Positions 7,322-28,655 of a stretch of 64,000 nucleotides of DNA are shown here, piece by piece. Made by a program: the position numbers and the translations under genes. Numbering within the stretch: the stretch's first letter is position 1; each line of letters opens with the position of its first letter. Under the pieces are notes generated by a model. That model had not been told where the DNA came from, did not search any database, and saw nothing but the letters and a program-made list of their open reading frames with translations. This DNA is from ANME-2 cluster archaeon (GTDB taxonomy: Archaea > Halobacteriota > Methanosarcinia > Methanosarcinales > Methanocomedenaceae): assembly GCA_019429385.1 (NCBI GenBank), contig JAHYIS010000008.1, positions 4,318 to 68,317 of the forward strand, in the 5' to 3' direction.

Positions 7322-9289
7322 TTAGTCTATTTCTTCCAGTTTCTGTTTCAATTCCCTGATACGATCCCTCATAGAAGCAGCATCTTCGAACTCAAGCTGT
7401 TTTGCTGCCTTTTGCATTCTGGCTTCCAGGTCGATCATGAGGTCCAGTATCTCCTCCTGGGACAGATCTTCAAAGAGTTGTGTGCCAATTTCTTCGTGTT
7501 TTGGTACAATGTCTTTTCGAATAGATTTGGTTATGGACCGTGGTGTGATATTGTGCTGTCTGTTATATTCCTGCTGGATGAGACGACGCCGGTTTGTTTC
7601 ATCCATCGCTCTTTTAATGGAACCGGTTATCTTATCGGCATACATTACCACCCTGCCTTCCACGTTGCGGCTGGCGCGGCCGATGGTCTGGATGAGCGAG
7701 CGCTCAGACCTCAGGAATCCTTCTTTATCAGCATCAAGAATGGCGACCAGTGACACTTCGGGAAGGTCAAGACCTTCCCTCAACAGATTAATGCCCACCA
7801 GTACATCGAACTGGCCCAGGCGCAGATCCCGTATTATTTCCACCCGTTCAAGGGTCTGGATATCAGAGTGCATATACCTGGCTTTGATATCGAGTTCAGC
7901 CAGGTATTCGGTCAGGTCTTCAGCCATCCGCTTGGTCAGGGTAGTGACCAGGACGCGCCCGCCTGCATCCACCTCACGCCTGACCTCTCCTATCAGGTCG
8001 TCCACCTGTCCCTGTACAGGACGTATCGCAACTTCGGGGTCTACCAGCCCGGTAGGCCTGATGATCTGTTCAACCACTCTGGCGCTATTTTCCAGTTCAA
8101 AATCACCGGGCGTGGCCGAGACATATATGGTCTGCCCCGCACGTTTGCGAAACTCATCGATCCTGAGCGGCCTGTTGTCATAAGCACTGGGTAACCTGAA
8201 ACCGTTTTGTACCAGCGCGTCCTTGCGGGCGCGGTCTCCATTGTGCATCCCCTGTATCTGCGGGAGGGTAACATGGCTTTCGTCAAGGATGGCTAAATAG
8301 TCATCAGGAAAAAAATCAAGGAGGGTATAAGGGGGTTCTCCAGGCGAGCGGCCTTCCATATGCGCGCTGTAGTTCTCGATACCGGAACAGTACCCTATCT
8401 CGCGCATCATTTCGATATCGAACCGCGTTCTTTGTTCCAGCCGCTGTGCTTCCAGAAGTTTCCCCTGGGAACGGAACCGCTCAACTTCCACTTCCAGTTC
8501 CGCTTCTATTGAGACTATGGCTTTTTCGATGGCCTCGGCAGGCATAACATAATGCCTGGCAGGGTATATTGCAGCGCACTGGAGGTCGTGCAGGGTATGA
8601 CCTGTCAACGGGTCGAACTCGGTTATCCGTTCCACTTCGTCGCCGAACAATTCTATGCGCAACCCCTGGTTCGACATAGCGGGAAAGATTTCTATGGTAT
8701 CGCCGCGCACTCTGAAATTGCCCTGGGTAAAGTTCAGGTCATTGCGCTCGTACTGGATATCTACCAGCGCGGCCTGGATATATTTTCGTTCGATATGCTG
8801 GCCCACATCAAGCACCAGCGTCATGCTGCGCCATTCTTCAGGACTGCCCAGTCCGTAGATACAGGATACACTTGCTACCACGACCACATCCCGCCGTTCT
8901 ATGAGCGAGCGGGTGGTAGCGAGCCTGAGTTTGTCTATCTCTTCATTGATGTGGGCATCTTTTTCAATATAGGTATCTGTGGTGGGCAAATAGGCTTCCG
9001 GCTGGTAGTAATCGTAATAACTGACAAAGTATTCCACTGCATTCTCAGGGAAGAACTCCTTGAACTCGCTGTACAATTGGGCGGCGAGGGTCTTGTTATG
9101 GGCAATGACCAGGGTGGGGCGCTGGACTTTTTCGATCACCTTAGCTACCGTGAAGGTCTTGCCTGAACCAGTGACCCCGAGGAGGGTCTGGTGTCGTTCA
9201 CCGGCCTGGATACCTTTTGACAGGGATTCTATAGCAGGTCCCTGGTCACCGGTGGGCTGGAATTCTGATACGACGTTAAAAGCGGGCAT
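7322..9289 (-). CDS. uvrB: Excinuclease ABC subunit B
   Basis: 655 aa. [21 protein letters not shown], helicase motifs and the C-terminal UVR domain ([15 protein letters not shown]). Confidence 0.97.
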
Positions 9290-20230: not shown

Positions 20231-22474
20231 ATGGATAAGCGAATAGACTCATTGAAAAATGATACTACATTCATGTTAAGCATTATATCCATTATAGCAA
20301 TATTCATACGAATAATACCTTTTTCAAAAATCTTTATCAATGGTACTGTTGCCATAATTGGATGGGACCCCTATTACCATATGAGAAGGATTTTTTTTAC
20401 TGCTAATCATTTTCCTGATACTATCACGTTCGATTCATATCTCAATTATCCGTATGGGCTGGAGATCGGGTGGCCTCCCCTGTTCGACCAGGTCATTGCA
20501 TTCATCGCACTACTGAACGGCCATGGCTCTCCGGACCCGTTCATCGTCCAGACGACAGCGGCAATTTTCCCTGTCATTTTAGGGATTATCGTATTCATAC
20601 CACTCTATTTTGCCGTATCAATGATCTTTGACCGCAACGTTGCATTAGCAAGCGCGTTTATCCTTGCAATTCTCCCGACAAACATTAATTATTCAATGCT
20701 GGGGTCAACAGACCACCATATTGCAGAAGTATTTTTATTAATTACATCATACGCATTTGTTATCGCTGCTCTTAAAAGTCCTCGTCATAAACGTCTTTCA
20801 TTATCGCGTATTCCGAAAATCGGTCAAGGCAAATCCCTTTCACTCCAATTTATTTATGCGATATGTGCCGGCTTCTTCCTGGCAGTAGCCTTATTTACCT
20901 GGATAGGTGCTCCGATATTCATTGGCATTATTTCACTTTATGTGGCATTACAATACACAGTTGACTTGAAAAAAAACAGGCCTTTGCCAGGTCTTAATAA
21001 CATTTTCATCCCGGCTTTATGTGTTACCCTTGTGTTAACAATCTTTGGAGTAATAAGGTCTGTTCGACCGGGATTGGAGATGAGTCCGATACACATCTCC
21101 TGGTTCCAGGTCTTATTCGTTCTGCTCATTATCCTGTCAGTATTTGCATTATCTTTCCTCGCAGGATTTGTTTCATCAAAAGGATATGGTTGGTGGAGTT
21201 TCCCGTTCATTGTAGCAATTTCAATGGTTATCATCTTTTTTGCACTTCACCTTTTCTCGCAATCAACATTTGGTTCACTGAAATATGGAATTAGTTATTT
21301 ACTTGGGTATGGAGACGTATTATCAACAATTGCCGAAGCCCAGCCTTTAATTCAGGGACCGCAACAAACACTCAATACATTATTCGCTTTCTTTGGTTCA
21401 AGTATATTCTTTGCCATTCCGGCTTTACTCCTGTTCGTACAGAAAATGTTCAAGGAAGAGCATCCACCTGAATTGCTTTTCTTTGCATCCTGGACTCTTG
21501 TTATCTTGATCCTTTCATTGTCACAGATACGTTTCGTCAACCAACTTTCTATTATTGTTGTGATATTGGCAGGATATTTCATTATCTTCAGTATCAACGT
21601 GATCAATTCATTCAAATATTCAAATGTATTGAAACTCACCGGCATTGCTATACTGCTCTCGGTTGCCATCATACCTACTGTGTATTCAGGGTATCAAATA
21701 GTGGCAAATCCGCAACTTCCTCCGCAGGATTGGGTAGATTCTATGGAATGGTTGAAAAAAAATACACCCGAAACTTCATACTATGACAATCCCAATATGA
21801 TGCCAGAATATGGCGTGATGAACTGGTGGTCGTATGGTAATTGGATCCTGTATCTTTCAGAACGTCCTGTAGTGGCAAATAATTTCCAGGCAGGTATGGA
21901 AGATGCAGGGCGCTTTTTCATTGAATCTGATGTATCCAGGGCAAGAGCGATACTGGATGCCAGGAATGTCAGGTATATCATTACGACAGGCGAAATGGTG
22001 TACGGGAAAAACGAAAATATTGCACTGGCTGCAGGTGAAAATCCTGCTGAGTATTCTGTACGCAGCGATATGTTGAAAACTACTACAATGTATAGATTGC
22101 ACATTGGTGATGGTTCAGGACTGGGTTATTATCGTTTATTGTATGAATCTAAAAGTCCACAGATATTCCTTAAAAATGTTAAAATATTTGAGTATGTAAA
22201 AGGTGCGAATATCATCGGGCAGGCTTCACCACATGAAGTGGTGCTGGCATTCACCAATATTACGACGAATCAAAATAGGGTTTTTACCTATTTTAATTCA
22301 GTGGAAGCTAATGAAACTGGGTGGTATACTATTTCGGTGGCATATTCTACGACTGAGTCAGCATTTGTAAGGAATAAAGTAGAACCGTATAAGGTTATTA
22401 ATTCTAAAAATATTCTGATAGACGAAGTATCAGTGAAGGAAGATGATATAATTCATGGCAGAAATGTTGTTTGA
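20231..22474 (+). CDS. aglB: Archaeal oligosaccharyltransferase AglB (STT3 family)
   Basis: 747 aa with about 13 TM segments. The N-terminal loop has WDPYYHMRR and the C-terminal domain has MNWWSYGNWI (WWDYG-type motif). Confidence 0.85.
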   Translation: MDKRIDSLKNDTTFMLSIISIIAIFIRIIPFSKIFINGTVAIIGWDPYYHMRRIFFTANHFPDTITFDSYLNYPYGLEIGWPPLFDQVIAFIALLNGHGSPDPFIVQTTAAIFPVILGIIVFIPLYFAVSMIFDRNVALASAFILAILPTNINYSMLGSTDHHIAEVFLLITSYAFVIAALKSPRHKRLSLSRIPKIGQGKSLSLQFIYAICAGFFLAVALFTWIGAPIFIGIISLYVALQYTVDLKKNRPLPGLNNIFIPALCVTLVLTIFGVIRSVRPGLEMSPIHISWFQVLFVLLIILSVFALSFLAGFVSSKGYGWWSFPFIVAISMVIIFFALHLFSQSTFGSLKYGISYLLGYGDVLSTIAEAQPLIQGPQQTLNTLFAFFGSSIFFAIPALLLFVQKMFKEEHPPELLFFASWTLVILILSLSQIRFVNQLSIIVVILAGYFIIFSINVINSFKYSNVLKLTGIAILLSVAIIPTVYSGYQIVANPQLPPQDWVDSMEWLKKNTPETSYYDNPNMMPEYGVMNWWSYGNWILYLSERPVVANNFQAGMEDAGRFFIESDVSRARAILDARNVRYIITTGEMVYGKNENIALAAGENPAEYSVRSDMLKTTTMYRLHIGDGSGLGYYRLLYESKSPQIFLKNVKIFEYVKGANIIGQASPHEVVLAFTNITTNQNRVFTYFNSVEANETGWYTISVAYSTTESAFVRNKVEPYKVINSKNILIDEVSVKEDDIIHGRNVV

Positions 22475-22560
22475 TGAAATGTAATCTTTCCCATTTGAAT
22501 AATATTATGTTTTTTTCCTGTAATCCCTCAATCCAATAAGGAATCAAGAACAAATATCAG

Positions 22561-23376
22561 TTATCGATTTTTTTCTTTTTTATTCAATTCAATAAAAGCT
22601 TCTCTGAGTTCATGGTGAATGTTAAACGGAAGTTGGCCGTTGACTTTGTATGAACACCAAATATAATATCCTATGATATAAAGGCCTAAAAGCAGAAATA
22701 AAATACCTAACAATTCCGTGATATCGAATATCGAATTAAGAAATATTGAGGTGATCGGAACTATAATTATCGGAGCGAAACCAATGACCCATGCGTCTTC
22801 AAAGTGAAAGATCTTAAATTGGTTGGTAAGGAAGAACCACCATCCAAAAAAGATAATAGGTATAACATAAGGAACTACAGTAATAAGCCGTGTGACTTCA
22901 ATAAAATAGATAAAAAGGGATAAAGTAATTAACACAAGCAAGATATTTCGTACGACGAAATTATCTGAAATACCGGCATTTGATGGCGAATGGCTTTTCC
23001 CTTGAACGTGTTCCATTTCAGATTCTATATTTTCAACTTTATTTAAGAGCATTTTCAAATCTATAGAAAAATCCTTGACTTCCACCTGCGTCTCAGCTAG
23101 AACATTGACCAGTGGGCCCAAACGTCTATAAATACCATTTTCGAACGATGAATCTAAAAGTTCATCCAAATAAAGAACCTTTCGGTAAATTTTAACTGCA
23201 TAAATGAGAGTGAAACCTCCGATAAATAAAAACAGTGTTCCAACTATCACATCAAGGATAATATTGGAGATAAAGCCTGAAATAACAGAAAAAAATGACC
23301 ATATTATTAAAAAAACTGCCGCTATTATCGTACTGTAGAGGCCGATTTTTTCTAAAGTCGTTAAATGGTTGGCCAT
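22561..23376 (-). CDS. Polytopic membrane protein of unknown function, translationally overlapped with the pentahaem cytochrome gene
   Basis: 271 aa. It has N- and C-terminal TM bundles separated by a soluble charged segment. Its ATG lies 16 nt inside the 3' end of the upstream cytochrome ORF. Confidence 0.5.
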   Translation of the reverse strand: MANHLTTLEKIGLYSTIIAAVFLIIWSFFSVISGFISNIILDVIVGTLFLFIGGFTLIYAVKIYRKVLYLDELLDSSFENGIYRRLGPLVNVLAETQVEVKDFSIDLKMLLNKVENIESEMEHVQGKSHSPSNAGISDNFVVRNILLVLITLSLFIYFIEVTRLITVVPYVIPIIFFGWWFFLTNQFKIFHFEDAWVIGFAPIIIVPITSIFLNSIFDITELLGILFLLLGLYIIGYYIWCSYKVNGQLPFNIHHELREAFIELNKKEKNR

Positions 23377-24047
23377 TTTACCTCGATGAAGGTCTTGAAT
23401 ATTAACGTAATCACATCAGCAATTGTAGGGATACCCCCTGCCTCTTTTATTGGAGCAGGTGAAATCTCAGGTGATGTTTCCAACAGTTTTACAATCTCAC
23501 TGTCAGGTTTATTTGAATAACTCAGCCCGTATTCACCATGACAAAGAACACATAAACTGCTCAGGTTCTCATGCGACCCATGTGGACCATATGGATGGCA
23601 AATACTGCAATCAGTAGTATTCGGCCTTATCAATCGCTCTTTTTCCACATGGCAGACTTCACATTTTTTATTACTATGAAGTATGTGGATATCATTATCC
23701 CCTAATTGGTCAACTATTCCGACATGGCATCGGATACACGGACTATTCCCGTGTATCTGCTGTACTTTCTTGATATCAATTTCCATATCCCATTGATTGT
23801 TTTCCAGATAATGACATTTACAATTGATTCCATAAGCCCTCTCGATCTCTATGAGCGAAAAATGGCATTGAAAACATTTTGCTCCACTATGACGTAGGTC
23901 ACCTGACCACCCGGGTCTTTCATAGGGGAAGGTATATTCAGGGGCGTTTTTTTCATCAGTGACTGCTGATGAAGAAGATACTTCCTGTACCACAAATAGT
24001 GAAATGAATATTATTAGAACAATTAATGTGGAACCCGGTTTCTTCAT
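23361..24047 (-). CDS. Secreted pentahaem c-type cytochrome
   Basis: Sec-type signal (MKKPGSTLIVLIIFISLFVV). Five CxxCH motifs: CFQCH, CIRCH, CEVCH, CSICH, CVLCH. There is also one off-pattern CKCH. Confidence 0.85.
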   Translation of the reverse strand: MKKPGSTLIVLIIFISLFVVQEVSSSSAVTDEKNAPEYTFPYERPGWSGDLRHSGAKCFQCHFSLIEIERAYGINCKCHYLENNQWDMEIDIKKVQQIHGNSPCIRCHVGIVDQLGDNDIHILHSNKKCEVCHVEKERLIRPNTTDCSICHPYGPHGSHENLSSLCVLCHGEYGLSYSNKPDSEIVKLLETSPEISPAPIKEAGGIPTIADVITLIFKTFIEVKWPTI

Positions 24048-24333
24048 GATGCCTCTTACTATAATTGCATAGATTAAATATAATTATATCCATATATACA
24101 TGAATTGATGATATAAATTATTTGAGGACTATTAACCTTTTCATTATACAGGTTTGTGAAATGTATTTTATTGAGTTTCATGCAATACGTACCATATGAG
24201 TCTAATGTTATATGATTCTACCAGATATCCGGAACAAATCCTGGGTTTCAAGTACCTGGTATCGCAAAGGAGTGTTTTTTTCAAAACAACGTGAATCGAT
24301 ATATTTATCAATGTGATTTAATAATTCTAATGT

Positions 24334-24759
24334 GTGAAAACCAGATATATCATAATTGCGGGACTAGCTGTTATAATAATATTGATCTTTGGTGCAAATT
24401 TATTTGACTTTTCAGAAAAAGTGCCGGTAATTAAAGCGAAATTTGAAATTATCGAAGTTGATAATGAAACTATAATTATCGATAGATCGGTCGAACAATC
24501 TAAAACCACCTATTTAAAACGACCCAGATCAGAATTACAGGAATATCCTTTATTAACCTCGCATGCAGCTATAAATGGAGTTTATTATAGCGATTGGGGT
24601 ATTACTCAATATAATGGTCCTGGGGAATATGAAATTCAAATGGGATTTCGGGAAGGATATTATCCTGTATCGAATGATTATGTTATGGTGATCTCTTATC
24701 TCTATGATGAGGAAGGGAATGTAATACTGAAAGATAAAATTGATTATTATTGGGAATAG
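24334..24759 (+). CDS. Hypothetical N-terminally anchored small protein
   Basis: 141 aa, GTG start, one N-terminal TM helix. No family recognised. Confidence 0.4.
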   Translation: MKTRYIIIAGLAVIIILIFGANLFDFSEKVPVIKAKFEIIEVDNETIIIDRSVEQSKTTYLKRPRSELQEYPLLTSHAAINGVYYSDWGITQYNGPGEYEIQMGFREGYYPVSNDYVMVISYLYDEEGNVILKDKIDYYWE

Positions 24760-24984
24760 AACAACAATATTTTTAGAATATTATATATAATTATTTTACA
24801 TTGCAGATTTCGCACTTTTAATAAGTATCAAGCATCTATCAAGTGTAATTTGATTTACTGTTATATACATATCGGAATTTATATAATTATATAGCTTTCA
24901 GAAAAAAACGATACATATATATGCTTTGAAACAAACAATTAGCCATTAATTGGGATTCATCCCAAACGGAATAGGAGAATTATT

Positions 24985-25593
24985 ATGAATAAGATTGGAC
25001 TCGTATTAGCAGCTGTAATAGCTGTTGGAATGTTTGCCCTGCCTGCCACATTGGCATACTTTGATGGGCAGCACGTATTCGTATCTGGTTCTGATGTGGA
25101 TTGTGGTAAATGTCATACTGCAATTGCTGATGAATTCTATTACGCAAATAGAGGTGCCGATGGTGGTGTAGTTGGTCCTCACGCAACCAACATGGTTTGT
25201 ACGGACTGCCATGTCACTGTACTGATGAATGGTAACAGTACAAGTACTGTCTATCAGAACCCTGCTGCCAAGGAGGGTCACGCATCAACAGCTGTTGAAT
25301 GTATGGATTGCCATGACAGCAATCAAACATCTTATGCTAAACAGGCTGGACAATATGGTAACCATGACATCACTGATCCCACCGCAGCTCACTACGATTT
25401 CTATGCTGCCGCTCTTGCAAACGAGGACACAACACTGAGAAATGGTGCCAATGAAGCTTGTATTGCATGTCATACCCATACCGCCGTAACTATTGTTTGG
25501 GTATCAACAGATGGCAATATGACCTATGACCAGGCTACTGGACATTTCTCACAGAACGCCAATCCAGGGAACAAAGTAAACGCAACATATTAG
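24985..25593 (+). CDS. Secreted tetrahaem c-type cytochrome with SipW-cognate-like N-terminus
   Basis: Four CxxCH motifs (CGKCH, CTDCH, CMDCH, CIACH). The N-terminus is MNKIGLVLAAVIAVGMFALPATLAYFDGQHVF. GGAG sits 8-11 nt upstream of the ATG. Confidence 0.9.
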   Translation: MNKIGLVLAAVIAVGMFALPATLAYFDGQHVFVSGSDVDCGKCHTAIADEFYYANRGADGGVVGPHATNMVCTDCHVTVLMNGNSTSTVYQNPAAKEGHASTAVECMDCHDSNQTSYAKQAGQYGNHDITDPTAAHYDFYAAALANEDTTLRNGANEACIACHTHTAVTIVWVSTDGNMTYDQATGHFSQNANPGNKVNATY

Positions 25594-25666
25594 AGTTTTG
25601 AATTGTTACCTAACTCTAACAACAATTGGTTAAGGTTTTTTGAACCTTAACCGATACCTTTTTTTT

Positions 25667-26383
25667 ATGATTATTTATATTATACTTTCCTCGATTTTTC
25701 TGATTATTCTATTCGGCTTTTTTTACAATCAACATCATAATGGTAAACTGTATCTCCTTCCTTTAATTTTCATCCAGGACCGGTACAAAAAGAATTCAAC
25801 AAAAAAACGTATTGAACAGATACGTTCAAATTGTCATACCCCTGATACGACATTTACCTTGATTGGTAATTTTGGGTTCATTGCAATTTGTATAATCCTG
25901 GCATATGTCTTTCTCTCCCATACACTATTGTTCGGTGCAGTAATGACCGGGAGCATGACCGGTACAGTTGATAAAGGTGACCTTATTTTTATGACCTCTG
26001 TAGGTGAGGTAGAAGTAGGAGATATCATAATGTTCAATTCTCCGGATGTACTGTATCCCGTGACTCACAGGGTCTATGACATCACTCCGTTCGGTATAAC
26101 AACGAAAGGAGATGCCAGGAACCTTCCTGACAGTTGGACTATCCAGAATGAAGATGTACTTGCCCAAGCCGTTTTGATATTTGAAAAACCCATTGTCATC
26201 CCTGATGCAGGTAATTATTTCATTGTCGGGGATGAATTCGAAAGAAAATCAACCATTGATACAGAATACGGAGATGAATATGCCATTGCCAAAAAATTCT
26301 TTAGTATGATACGCTCATATGGAGTAGTAATATTTATCATAGTACTGTTATATTCAGTGTTAGATCTATTCAAAGGCGGTTGA
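25667..26383 (+). CDS. Signal peptidase I, archaeal/ER (S26B, SipW/Sec11) type
   Basis: LLFGAVMTGSMTGTVDKGDLIFM (Ser box), GDIIMFNS..YPVTHRVYDI (His box) and TTKGDARNLPD. It has N-terminal TM segments and a C-terminal TM. The track start is TTG 25640 and the first ATG is 25667. Confidence 0.8.
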   Translation: MIIYIILSSIFLIILFGFFYNQHHNGKLYLLPLIFIQDRYKKNSTKKRIEQIRSNCHTPDTTFTLIGNFGFIAICIILAYVFLSHTLLFGAVMTGSMTGTVDKGDLIFMTSVGEVEVGDIIMFNSPDVLYPVTHRVYDITPFGITTKGDARNLPDSWTIQNEDVLAQAVLIFEKPIVIPDAGNYFIVGDEFERKSTIDTEYGDEYAIAKKFFSMIRSYGVVIFIIVLLYSVLDLFKGG

Positions 26384-26384
26384 A

Positions 26385-27272
26385 TTGAAAAAACTGATAT
26401 TACTTCTCATTGCCATAGCATTCATTGCCACCCCCAACACCATTTCTTACTTTACAGGTCAGCACACTTTTGAATCAAAAAGTTGTATGGCCTGTCACAA
26501 CAGCATAGAACTGGATGTCAAACAGGGGACTACTCTTATGGCAACATTTGATTGTATCCAATGTCATTATTATATTTCAATTTCCAATTCATCCGTTCAA
26601 GGGCATTCTACCGTCAATAATGCATGTATTGATTGTCACTTAAATGTCGGGGACCAATTCATTTCAAAAAATGATTCTCATAAGAATTTTTATCAAGCTG
26701 CGATCCTTGATAATTCCATGTTATCCACAAATGAAGCCTGTCTTATGTGTCATAGTGATATCAATAAAAGTTTTATTTTTTCAAGGCCTGAATTCATAGA
26801 ATACGAAGTAATGAATGATAGCGGTACCTGGACGGTCCAGAATTTACTGGAAGGAGCTACAGTGAACAATAATATCAATTTTAACAGCAATAATGGAACA
26901 CACACCATACTAAGTGGAGCTGATGTGGGTTGCACAAAATGCCATACTGATATCACCACTGCGATAGGTACAGGTGGTCATTATCCTGTAAACACCACGT
27001 TCCACTCGGCTTCATCGACCTGTGCCCTTTGCCATGATAACTATGACCAGGTACAACTCGTCCAGCATGTATCAAATTCATCCACATGTATTAGTTGCCA
27101 TTCTACCCATAATGGAAGTATTATCAATTCAATTAACAATTATCCTATGAACGTTAAAGGAAATATTTGTCTTGGATGTCATATGACATCTGCTCCCTAT
27201 TTACCGGCAAACAATACCATAACAAATTTTAAAGTGTATCTTGAACCTGGTTCAGATGTCATTATAACATGA
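26385..27272 (+). CDS. Secreted octahaem c-type cytochrome with SipW-cognate-like N-terminus
   Basis: Eight CxxCH motifs (CMACH, CIQCH, CIDCH, CLMCH, CTKCH, CALCH, CISCH, CLGCH). The N-terminus is MKKLILLLIAIAFIATPNTISYFTGQHTF. The TTG start is 1 nt after the peptidase stop. Confidence 0.9.
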   Translation: MKKLILLLIAIAFIATPNTISYFTGQHTFESKSCMACHNSIELDVKQGTTLMATFDCIQCHYYISISNSSVQGHSTVNNACIDCHLNVGDQFISKNDSHKNFYQAAILDNSMLSTNEACLMCHSDINKSFIFSRPEFIEYEVMNDSGTWTVQNLLEGATVNNNINFNSNNGTHTILSGADVGCTKCHTDITTAIGTGGHYPVNTTFHSASSTCALCHDNYDQVQLVQHVSNSSTCISCHSTHNGSIINSINNYPMNVKGNICLGCHMTSAPYLPANNTITNFKVYLEPGSDVIIT

Positions 27273-27386
27273 TTGATAGTGAATTCAAGGTAATTGAAAG
27301 ACAAGAAAATCCCTCCTACGGTCGGATTACCTTGAGTTTAGAAAGTTATACTGTATTTACAATTAAAAAATAGTAACAATTGATTG

Positions 27387-28655
27387 TTATTTTCTTTTTT
27401 TATTAAGTTGTCTTGATATCATCACCAATGCAAAAATGACGAAAAATCCTGAAATCGATGGAATTGAAAAACCATTATCACTATCAGTTTCATTTATTGC
27501 ATCACCAGGATTAACTGGGGATTCTGCATCCTGAACAACAATTACTTTCTTAAATTCCTTGCCCTGGATTTTTGCCTGGAATATTCCCGGAGTTTCCATC
27601 GATACATTAAAACGAACGACTTCAGATTCTCCATAGGCTAATGTAACATTCCTGGTGGCCTTTACTTCATCATTAAGCAATAAGACCACTGGTCTGGTAC
27701 CATTCTCACCTGTATTGAACACTCCGACAGAAATCGTTACGTTTTCGCCTTTATAATATTTTATCCTATCTGCCTGAAGTTCATTATAAATGAATTCCGT
27801 AGGTTTTACAGGAATTATTTCAACTTCATAACTCACGTTCTTTGAGCCTAATTCCAGGTTATTAATACCCGGTATAGATGAAATAACGGTGAAATATACT
27901 TCATTTATCTTGTTGGGCTGCAAATCGAAACTGACATCGCCCAGTTTTTTTCCATTCAATACCAGTGGAATACTATCCTTAACAATGTTGGGATTTTCAT
28001 TCGCAATTAAGACTTTCACATTCACATCTGATTCAGGTGGTACATGCTCGGGCACAATGATCTCTTTGACAAAATACGGCTTTGCCGAGCTGTCAATGAT
28101 GATCTTGAGTTCTTTTTCAACTACTTCAGCATGACTGCGGGGGATCAACAAACCTTCATCGATCAAAGTGTCTTCATCATAGGTTGAAAAGAATTTTTCC
28201 AGATGATTGACCTCTTTATCACTCATCCTTGGATCGATGGGTGTAATAAACTTTTTCGTAGTATATGTATAGTTCGTTCTATCCATCTGGTATATCTTGA
28301 TAGTATATTCTCCATCTATCCACTCGGGAGGTATCTTCTTTGAAAAAAAAGCTGACGTTTCTTTACCATACGTCCTTGACCTGTCCTTTTGTATCTGGAT
28401 ATGCACAGGATTATCGTTCGGGTCCTTTATTACTAATAGGTAATCATAAGCAACGATACGATTATAATTATAGAGAAGGTTCCTGTGCGAGTATACATTA
28501 ATAGTACTGCCCGGTACAAACACAGTATTATCGCGGAGTGTTTTTCCGTCAGAAAGCGTGAAATATAATGTTTCGGTGTAGTCCGTAGCATCAACTAATG
28601 GTGCTAATAGTATCAGTATGAACAATATTCCAATAATTGCTGATTTTATACTCAT
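27387..28655 (-). CDS. Cell-surface protein with repeated beta-sandwich (CARDB-like) modules and a C-terminal membrane anchor
   Basis: 422 aa. It has a signal peptide and two similar modules (..VNVKVLIANENP.. and ..VTISVGVFNTGENG..). The C-terminus is SIPSISGFFVIFALVMISRQLNKKRK. Confidence 0.55.
   Translation of the reverse strand: MSIKSAIIGILFILILLAPLVDATDYTETLYFTLSDGKTLRDNTVFVPGSTINVYSHRNLLYNYNRIVAYDYLLVIKDPNDNPVHIQIQKDRSRTYGKETSAFFSKKIPPEWIDGEYTIKIYQMDRTNYTYTTKKFITPIDPRMSDKEVNHLEKFFSTYDEDTLIDEGLLIPRSHAEVVEKELKIIIDSSAKPYFVKEIIVPEHVPPESDVNVKVLIANENPNIVKDSIPLVLNGKKLGDVSFDLQPNKINEVYFTVISSIPGINNLELGSKNVSYEVEIIPVKPTEFIYNELQADRIKYYKGENVTISVGVFNTGENGTRPVVLLLNDEVKATRNVTLAYGESEVVRFNVSMETPGIFQAKIQGKEFKKVIVVQDAESPVNPGDAINETDSDNGFSIPSISGFFVIFALVMISRQLNKKRK

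Follow-up and report, generated by a model that had tools for sequence, protein, structure and literature searches.

The octahaem cytochrome gene at positions 26385-27272 of a 64,000-nucleotide stretch of genomic DNA from an ANME-2 archaeon (ANME, anaerobic methanotrophic archaea; contig JAHYIS010000008.1; the whole analysed stretch is called the window below, and positions are counted from its first letter) raises two questions: how is its product related to the tetrahaem cytochrome encoded a short distance upstream, and what might the longer protein do alongside the shorter one? An initial annotation had aligned the first half of the octahaem protein block by block with the tetrahaem protein, had taken this as a local duplication followed by extension with a second four-haem module, and had suggested a polymer subunit and a longer adaptor or base subunit that share one processing signal. 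The motif strings it quoted for both proteins, including CTKCH, CALCH, CISCH and CLGCH of the second half, are all present in the sequence. Our analysis leads to a different history. As judged by profile comparison, the octahaem protein is two modules of the type found in extracellular cytochrome nanowires (ECN), joined head to tail behind one signal peptide by internal tandem duplication or fusion, and it belongs to an old family of long tandem-module paralogues; we regard this architecture and the age of the family, taken together, as highly probable. The features on which the argument turns are the following (aa, amino acids; ER, endoplasmic reticulum; a slash marks a predicted cleavage point).

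24985-25593, + strand: tetrahaem cytochrome, 202 aa, 4 CxxCH motifs, about 1.4 kb upstream of the octahaem gene
25625-25666, + strand: hairpin followed by U8, between the tetrahaem stop and the peptidase ATG (stem 25625-25655, U8 25659-25666)
25667-26383, + strand: archaeal/ER-type S26B, SipW-like signal peptidase I, 238 aa from the ATG at 25667
26385-27272, + strand: octahaem cytochrome, 295 aa, 8 CxxCH motifs, with a TTG start one base past the peptidase stop
26385-26447, + strand: octahaem signal peptide, residues 1-21, predicted cleavage TIS/YFTGQH, motif positions as in the ECN family
26448-26879, + strand: octahaem module N, residues 22-165, haems 1-4 at C34, C57, C81 and C119
26880-27272, + strand: octahaem module C, residues 166-295 plus the stop codon, haems 5-8 at C183, C213, C235 and C262

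By its sequence the 202-aa tetrahaem protein is a local version of the AvECN-type nanowire subunit and an ordinary member of that family. Among solved structures it matches meaningfully only 8E5G, that of AvECN, the extracellular cytochrome nanowire of Archaeoglobus veneficus (E 5e-17 by phmmer with the single sequence, and E 9e-75 with the ECN family profile); this structure is reportedly that of Baquero et al. 2023 (Cell 186:2853). The two proteins have in common four CxxCH motifs, four distal His residues and the N-terminal motif discussed below. In the tetrahaem protein the CxxCH motifs lie at C40, C72, C106 and C159 and the distal His residues at 30, 66, 99 and 136, and all eight sites are invariant in 43 tetrahaem homologues. 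Its nearest relatives are ordinary ECN genes of other orders (112-134 bits), and the spread of the AvECN family into ANME has already been recognised (PMC13046784, PMC12246660).

Direct comparison of the two window proteins by BLASTP gives E 2e-12, but its main high-scoring segment pair is misregistered and places tetrahaem haems 2-4 on octahaem haems 3-5. Profile alignments were used instead because of this shift by one motif. When a profile of eight octahaem orthologues was compared with one of the tetrahaem homologues, hhalign placed octahaem residues 1-155 on tetrahaem residues 1-197 with a probability of 99.8% (99.5-99.8% across comparisons) and E 3e-29, with the haems paired one to one; the blocks GHxxxxxxC..CH and H..FY.AA...NEAC..CH fall within this alignment. 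Because multihaem proteins yield spurious similarity, we also ran shuffles that preserve the motifs, in which the C, C and H columns of the haem motifs (optionally all His columns) were held fixed and the remaining columns were shuffled 80 times. The mature N half scored 136 against a null of 37 +/- 6 (z 15), and none of the 80 shuffles scored as high. Single-sequence Smith-Waterman comparison of the octahaem N half with the tetrahaem protein gave z 4.9 with CxxCH fixed (0 of 1000 shuffles as high) and z 3.1 with the motifs masked. These controls rule out chance similarity from motif spacing. The first half is thus homologous to the 202-aa tetrahaem protein, haem for haem and in the register that the initial annotation had noted, and the possibility that only the spacing of the motifs matched, with no similarity elsewhere, falls away.

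The second half had been described as an added four-haem extension; it is instead a diverged copy of the same module. hhalign places octahaem residues 170-268 on tetrahaem residues 27-165, with haems 5-8 on haems 1-4, at a probability of 97.3% (E 2.5e-11), and the column shuffles give z 6.5, or 5.3 with all His columns fixed, again with none of 80 shuffles as high. A profile built from the C modules only, from 18 relatives, aligns with the ECN family profile at a probability of 98.2%. When searched against the whole PDB its top match is 8E5G (E 2.6e-10), which it covers in one collinear stretch over four haem sites for 43 bits, whereas the next match, MtrF, reaches its 38 bits only as four pieces of no more than 16 bits each. 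The octahaem sequence alone finds 8E5G at E 3e-4, and the N module of the long-family profile finds it at E 1e-27.

The predicted ligands repeat in the same way. The eight CxxCH motifs are at residues 34, 57, 81, 119, 183, 213, 235 and 262. In module N the candidate distal ligands are H27, M52, H74 and H99, so that the order along the chain is H27, C34, M52, C57, H74, C81, H99, C119. In module C they are His 173, 199, 228 and 242, and the order is H173, C183, H199, C213, H228, C235, H242, C262. The pattern of a distal ligand followed by CxxCH, four times over, is thus present twice, except that Met52 stands where the second His would be. The start of module C, NNGTH173, is the counterpart of FxGQH (FDGQH in the tetrahaem protein), at which a mature subunit would start. 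Module N ends in a beta-meander (128-166) that bears the family motif SRPEFIEY, and the C-terminal strand of the protein, NFKVYLEPGSDVIIT, contains NFKVYLEP. Residue 52 (codon 26538-26540) is His in 28 of 42 members of the long family and Met in 11; the Met carriers are all eight ANME-2 octahaem proteins and three relatives, and the position is His in 43 of 43 short ECN proteins. Because Met occupies a distal-ligand position at which most relatives have His, one haem of the ANME-2 octahaem proteins is predicted to be His/Met-ligated and of higher potential. Whereas the AvECN protomer has 262 aa, one module and four haems, the octahaem protein carries two modules on one chain of 295 aa and is far more compact; it also differs from AvECN in its RPE[FY]IE and C-terminal F.VY.EP motifs and in the replacement of one distal His by Met.

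Structure prediction is consistent with this relationship. An AlphaFold2 model of the octahaem protein, built from a 42-sequence alignment, has a mean pLDDT (predicted local distance difference test) of 78 and a pTM (predicted template modelling score) of 0.73, and its most confident parts are the four strands at 128-166 and the strands at 278-294. The N-terminal G-Q-H tail (25-28) has pLDDT below 50, and the equivalent linker around H173 has 74-81. Foldseek finds 8E5G as the only significant PDB match to this model (E 7e-4, probability 1.0, 203 columns, template modelling score 0.46 on the target). The tetrahaem monomer is modelled poorly (pLDDT 56, pTM 0.37), too poorly for a fold search; a possible cause is that the single module depends on adjacent protomers, another simply that the alignments differ.

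An exhaustive profile search over 1.8 billion representatives (E<1e-3) found 220 relatives, of which the full-length ones have 250-670 aa and 6-11 haems. A hidden Markov model (HMM) of the ECN family finds two domains in long paralogues of ANME-1, Methanoperedens, Syntrophoarchaeum, GoM-Arc1 and Archaeoglobi, each domain starting at the GQH position, and three in an 11-haem Methanoperedens protein. In the window octahaem protein and 11 further long proteins (one per genome locus; ten from non-ANME-2 genomes plus that of locus L001), which carry 8-11 haems, it finds 2-3 domains, with starts at HMM positions 25-31. The long paralogue at 7476-9053 of a Candidatus Methanoperedens locus (L027) has 11 haems and three ECN modules.

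In an alignment of 42 long members, every CxxCH site but that of haem 2 is invariant, and site 2 is present in at least 90%. Of the distal ligands, H99 and H228 are invariant, H27 is kept in 41-42 of the 42, H74, H173 and H199 in at least 95% and H/M52 in at least 93%, and H242 is less well conserved. Two signatures mark the family and are absent from the short ECN subunits: RPE[FY]IE after haem 4 (R134 in 32/42, P135 in 33/42, I138 in 33/42) and the C-terminal strand [HN]F.[VI]Y.EP (F282 in 32/42, E287 in 41/42, P288 in 39/42). In a search with the mature N-module profile, the neighbouring tetrahaem protein scores 18 bits and ranks 314 of 467, while the N modules of long proteins from other lineages score 60-88 bits; with the C-module profile, the C-terminal modules of long paralogues rank first. 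The low score of the neighbour against those of long paralogues from other orders means that the paralogy is old, and the local duplication proposed at first does not hold. Since the same tandem architecture and signatures span the archaeal lineages and the neighbour scores so low, the fusion, too, is on this sequence evidence old, and the ANME-2 octahaem protein is the most compact member of the family.

Both cytochromes begin with the N-terminal motif P-x-T-x-[SA]/[LY]-F-x-G-Q-H. Its ECN-family form, F-A-L-P-x-T-[VLMI]-[SA]-[LY]-F-x-G-Q-H, is invariant in 43 of 43 homologues. The octahaem protein has the motif residues at P-10, T-8, S-6, F-4, G-2, Q-1 and H0, and the long family keeps them less strictly (P in 26/42, S in 31/42, F in 33/42, G in 35/42, H in 41/42). 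The predicted signal peptide of the tetrahaem protein comprises residues 1-24, with cleavage after A24 (LPATLA/YFDGQH). When the -3/-1 rule is applied to the ECN motif, cleavage is predicted after [SA]; the mature protein would then start [LY]-F-x-G-Q-H, the invariant His being its sixth residue. The peptidase gene that lies between the two cytochrome genes encodes a protein that matches NCBIfam TIGR02228 (E 1e-17, 64.5 bits, cut-off 51.85) and Pfam PF10502, and has three hydrophobic segments and the GSM, HRV and GDxxN boxes, read directly from its sequence. Orthologous peptidases begin at the ATG right after the U-run, and the TTG at 25640 listed as the start of this open reading frame is probably not the real one, which would be the ATG at 25667. 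The suggestion that the two cytochromes share one processing signal is thus borne out by the common motif and the S26 peptidase gene between them, and processing of both by this co-encoded peptidase is likely.

Between the tetrahaem and peptidase genes the hairpin has a 14-bp stem followed by U8 (fold energy -23.1 kcal/mol, z -5.6, by terminator scan and folding). Three other ANME-2 loci have a hairpin and U-run in the corresponding position, and the four loci between them show two distinct stem sequences. The element resembles a terminator or attenuator between cistrons. Since oligo-T is a termination signal for archaeal RNA polymerase, the hairpin and U8 could make the subunit mRNA abundant and read-through into the peptidase and octahaem genes scarce. 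It is possible that the hairpin sets the ratio of subunit to accessory proteins in this manner.

The arrangement of these genes is conserved well beyond the window. We scanned 76 genome loci with ECN homologues (numbered with an L here), which with the window make 77 sources. In 20 of the 77 the peptidase gene is a neighbour of ECN genes. Fifteen sources have a long paralogue, and for 10 of these the region retrieved also contains the peptidase gene. A long paralogue, a short ECN gene and an S26 peptidase gene occur together in the window, in L001, L077 and L078 (ANME-2), and in L027, L030, L037, L056, L057, L065, L070 and L012. The order tetrahaem, peptidase, octahaem is identical in four ANME-2 genomes, and the order ECN, peptidase, long paralogue in the Methanoperedens locus L027 is that of the window. 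A 4-nt overlap of a short gene with the long gene directly downstream is frequent. Where the long paralogue is seen it is present once per cassette, whereas short ECN genes stand in arrays of 2-6 copies. In the window these genes are flanked by the following.

22561-23376, - strand: polytopic membrane protein of 271 aa (TM271), conserved, a candidate assembly or anchoring component
23361-24047, - strand: five-haem cytochrome, 228 aa, with an ordinary signal peptide not of the ECN type
24334-24759, + strand: 141-aa protein with one N-terminal transmembrane segment and no family match
27387-28655, - strand: surface protein, 422 aa, with signal peptide, weak CARDB-like domain and transmembrane anchor at the C-terminus

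The block of seven genes (TM271, the five-haem cytochrome, the 141-aa protein, the tetrahaem, peptidase and octahaem genes and the 422-aa surface protein, on strands -, -, +, +, +, + and -, respectively) was checked in L077 and L078 and is present there. TM271 homologues occur in 19 loci, ANME-1 included (e.g. L025 3369-4184), and the peptidase is present in all 19. TM271 is predicted to have about six transmembrane segments and a soluble insert of about 75 aa; it has no Pfam or NCBIfam match, and its identity with the "8x TMH" protein of Chadwick 2022 is not evident, given its roughly six segments and its lack of a Trp-rich loop. The 422-aa surface protein, which matches PF07705 (CARDB-like) at E 2e-3, has homologues in 17 loci, and 14 of these also have the peptidase.

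Taken together, these observations suggest the following account, which we consider the best explanation and hold, as a whole, with moderate confidence; its most tentative step is that the octahaem protein would be a low-copy, terminal component of the wire, made of tandem wire modules. Both cytochromes would be exported by the Sec route and loaded with haem outside the membrane, and the co-encoded peptidase would cut both after P-x-T-x-[S/A], freeing a [Y/L]-F-x-G-Q-H tail whose His would serve as a haem ligand. Those parts of the literature that bear on the joints (PMC11936953; bioRxiv 10.1101/2023.06.12.544705, "0, 1 or 3") describe nanowire protomers as polymerising without, with one or with several inter-protomer His-Fe bonds, AvECN illustrating the last; from these texts we take AvECN to be the "3 His" case. 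If AvECN-type protomers are indeed joined by such bonds, as reported, the octahaem protein could for that reason dock on the tetrahaem polymer. It would amount to a covalently pre-joined pair of protomers, in which the inner junction is satisfied while the outer "sticky ends" could still exchange ligands with tetrahaem protomers, and each docking would lengthen the chain of haems by eight. The hairpin and U-run would keep the subunit abundant and the peptidase and octahaem protein scarce. Because a pre-joined pair with exposed ends would also be scarce past the hairpin, the octahaem protein may sit in low copy at a filament end as a primer, a cell-proximal adaptor or a cap. The division into a polymer subunit and a longer accessory subunit, as in the initial annotation, is plausible and fits the anatomy of the two proteins; the terminal role itself we put forward tentatively. 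That the long tandem paralogues as a family are dedicated nanowire end-subunits, which together with the peptidase and the membrane protein would nucleate, anchor or cap the wire, is more doubtful still.

A number of observations weigh against this account, some of them against the module architecture and others against the role. Unrelated multihaem cytochromes in the PDB reach inflated E-values of about 1e-9 against these profiles. In total bits, the C-module profile stands only modestly above such multihaem noise (43 against 38). The two octahaem halves match each other only marginally at the profile level (hhalign probability 94%, shuffle z 2.4 and 1.6) and without significance in single-sequence comparison; because of this the homology of module C rests on its link to the ECN family. 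As to the role, transmembrane prediction gives the octahaem protein no membrane anchor, and its eight candidate ligands for eight haems fit a free, self-contained cytochrome equally well. Codon adaptation and GC content at third codon positions (GC3), taken as a proxy for expression, do not separate the two cytochromes (both 0.68). Finally, the long paralogue is not universal: ANME-1 cassettes (L025 3029-3376; L005, L031, L033, L045, L069) have after the peptidase a protein of 98-135 aa with 1-3 haems (mostly three, these of 108-135 aa) and an ECN-type signal, whose gene overlaps the end of the peptidase gene and replaces the long paralogue.

Among the alternatives, the octahaem protein might itself form filaments, giving a second nanowire of eight-haem protomers independent of the tetrahaem wire. 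Protomers with eight haems have a precedent in OmcZ (PMC12954529), both modules keep the ECN ligand and haem pattern and the G-Q-H tail, and the family is large and well conserved. We think such a homopolymer unlikely, however, given the position of the gene, which lies past the conserved hairpin and U-run and is translationally coupled to the peptidase gene rather than standing first after the promoter region. The single long paralogue of each cassette also contrasts with the short ECN arrays, and the F.VY.EP strand and RPE[FY]IE have no counterpart in the polymerising subunits.

A second alternative, which we judge improbable, makes the octahaem protein a free, non-polymerising carrier between the membrane and the S-layer that would take up electrons from membrane cytochromes and pass them to the wire. 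The absence of a membrane anchor and the matching numbers of candidate distal ligands and haems would suit such a carrier, as would a monomer model that is fairly confident for the octahaem protein and not for the tetrahaem one, and the switch from His to Met would tune the potential of one haem. Nanowires of Geobacter are known to be charged in the periplasm (PMC10954620), and the Ppc cytochromes that charge OmcS supply the analogy. Against such a carrier, the protein has kept the ECN-type N-terminal tail, which is poorly placed in the monomer model, and two modules on one chain would still have unsatisfied outer ends if AvECN-type protomers trade His ligands; the tight link to a dedicated peptidase and a membrane protein would also be unusual for a simple shuttle. 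The remaining alternative, a recent local duplication of the tetrahaem gene followed by addition of an unrelated four-haem module, is very improbable: the genes are adjacent, have a common signal motif and align haem by haem, but the neighbour ranks far down the search list, the scores of long paralogues from other orders are higher by a factor of three to four, the second half has proved to be a homologue of the same module, and the same architecture occurs in ANME-1, Methanoperedens, Syntrophoarchaeum and Archaeoglobi.

The locus has partial parallels in known systems. In Bacillus subtilis the tapA-sipW-tasA operon encodes a fibre subunit, an accessory protein and a dedicated signal peptidase, and TasA and TapA share a special signal peptide. 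The window locus, like this operon and like archaeal bundling pili with a SipW-like peptidase, combines a major subunit, a related accessory protein and a dedicated S26 peptidase of the ER/archaeal type. The analogy is functional only, as the substrates here are c-type cytochromes and not proteins of the TasA/camelysin fold, and the peptidase is no SipW equivalog (31 bits with NF046067, cut-off 190). The OmcZ nanowire of Geobacter sulfurreducens is matured by a dedicated protease, OzpA, encoded nearby. The octahaem protein resembles OmcZ in having eight haems per chain, in being (by prediction) secreted and in the dedicated protease encoded close by, but OmcZ is not a tandem of four-haem modules and has a branched haem chain. 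No OmcZ chain (7LQ5, 8D9M) is among the PDB sequence matches of the octahaem protein, and none is among its Foldseek matches, which rejects membership in that family. The octahaem nitrite and tetrathionate reductases (about 520 aa, with a CxxCK or Lys/Cys catalytic haem) are likewise rejected, since the window protein has 295 aa and all eight of its motifs are CxxCH, and its matches to them are generic (E 1e-9); NrfB and MtrC give only generic multihaem matches broken into short pieces.

A highly transcribed group of "small MHC" (multihaem cytochrome) proteins in ANME, Syntrophoarchaeum and Archaeoglobales (S14 Fig) is known from Chadwick et al. 2022 (PMC9012536), who also noted an ANME-specific signal peptidase that is linked to cytochromes and confined to organisms able to carry out extracellular electron transfer (Fig 12). 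The long paralogues of ANME-1 and Methanoperedens lie inside the S14 alignment of that paper, which pools short and long proteins as small cytochromes, without the tandem architecture or the cassette of short gene, peptidase and long gene, and discusses the peptidase next to CcmF2/MHC-B. Motifs specific to the ANME-2 octahaem protein and to its neighbour were not found in the supplementary alignments of PMC9012536. In its S3 Data the top MHC of ANME-2c overall scores above the top MHC of the S14 group, which is uninformative on the octahaem protein; as we read that paper, the former is its highly transcribed 8-haem protein and does not belong to the S14 group. Neither the architecture of tandem modules nor its signatures, nor the cassette of short gene, peptidase and long gene, were found described anywhere in the literature searched, a scope outside which the primary AvECN paper lies. 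The octahaem protein is thus a new architecture within the known AvECN family.

The two window proteins are 100% identical to the hypothetical proteins K0A89_04470 (tetrahaem) and K0A89_04480 (octahaem) of a metagenome-assembled genome of an ANME-2 cluster archaeon, and archaeal genes (thermosome, TBP, AglB) surround theirs. Across the genes that run from AglB up to and including that of the 422-aa surface protein (20231-28655), GC3 is 0.24-0.38, against 0.53-0.63 in the flanking housekeeping genes, and this region is a compositionally distinct cell-surface gene island. The AglB oligosaccharyltransferase gene (20231-22474) lies 2.5 kb upstream of the tetrahaem gene, and there are nine N-x-S/T sequons in the octahaem protein and four in the tetrahaem protein; the two secreted cytochromes may be N-glycosylated. 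The five-haem cytochrome encoded at 23361-24047 also has a C-K-C-H motif, with a one-residue spacer, and its gene overlaps the start of the TM271 gene by 16 nt.

Uncultured methane-oxidising archaea are thought to wire themselves to partner bacteria, and the locus bears on how cytochrome nanowires, notably those of such organisms, are secreted, started, attached to the cell and terminated. It offers a testable parts list for nanowire biogenesis, which comprises a polymer subunit, its two-module relative, a dedicated peptidase and a conserved membrane protein, together with predictions of the cleavage sites, the ligation of haems by particular residues, one His/Met haem and unequal expression across the hairpin. 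Tandem fusion has given the nanowire module a further use, with two modules here and three in Methanoperedens, and this bears on the engineering of covalently linked conductive proteins. If the end-subunit role is true, the long tandem paralogues would provide cytochrome nanowires with their first identified factor for assembly or termination, and would define a locus for nanowire biogenesis in ANME archaea.

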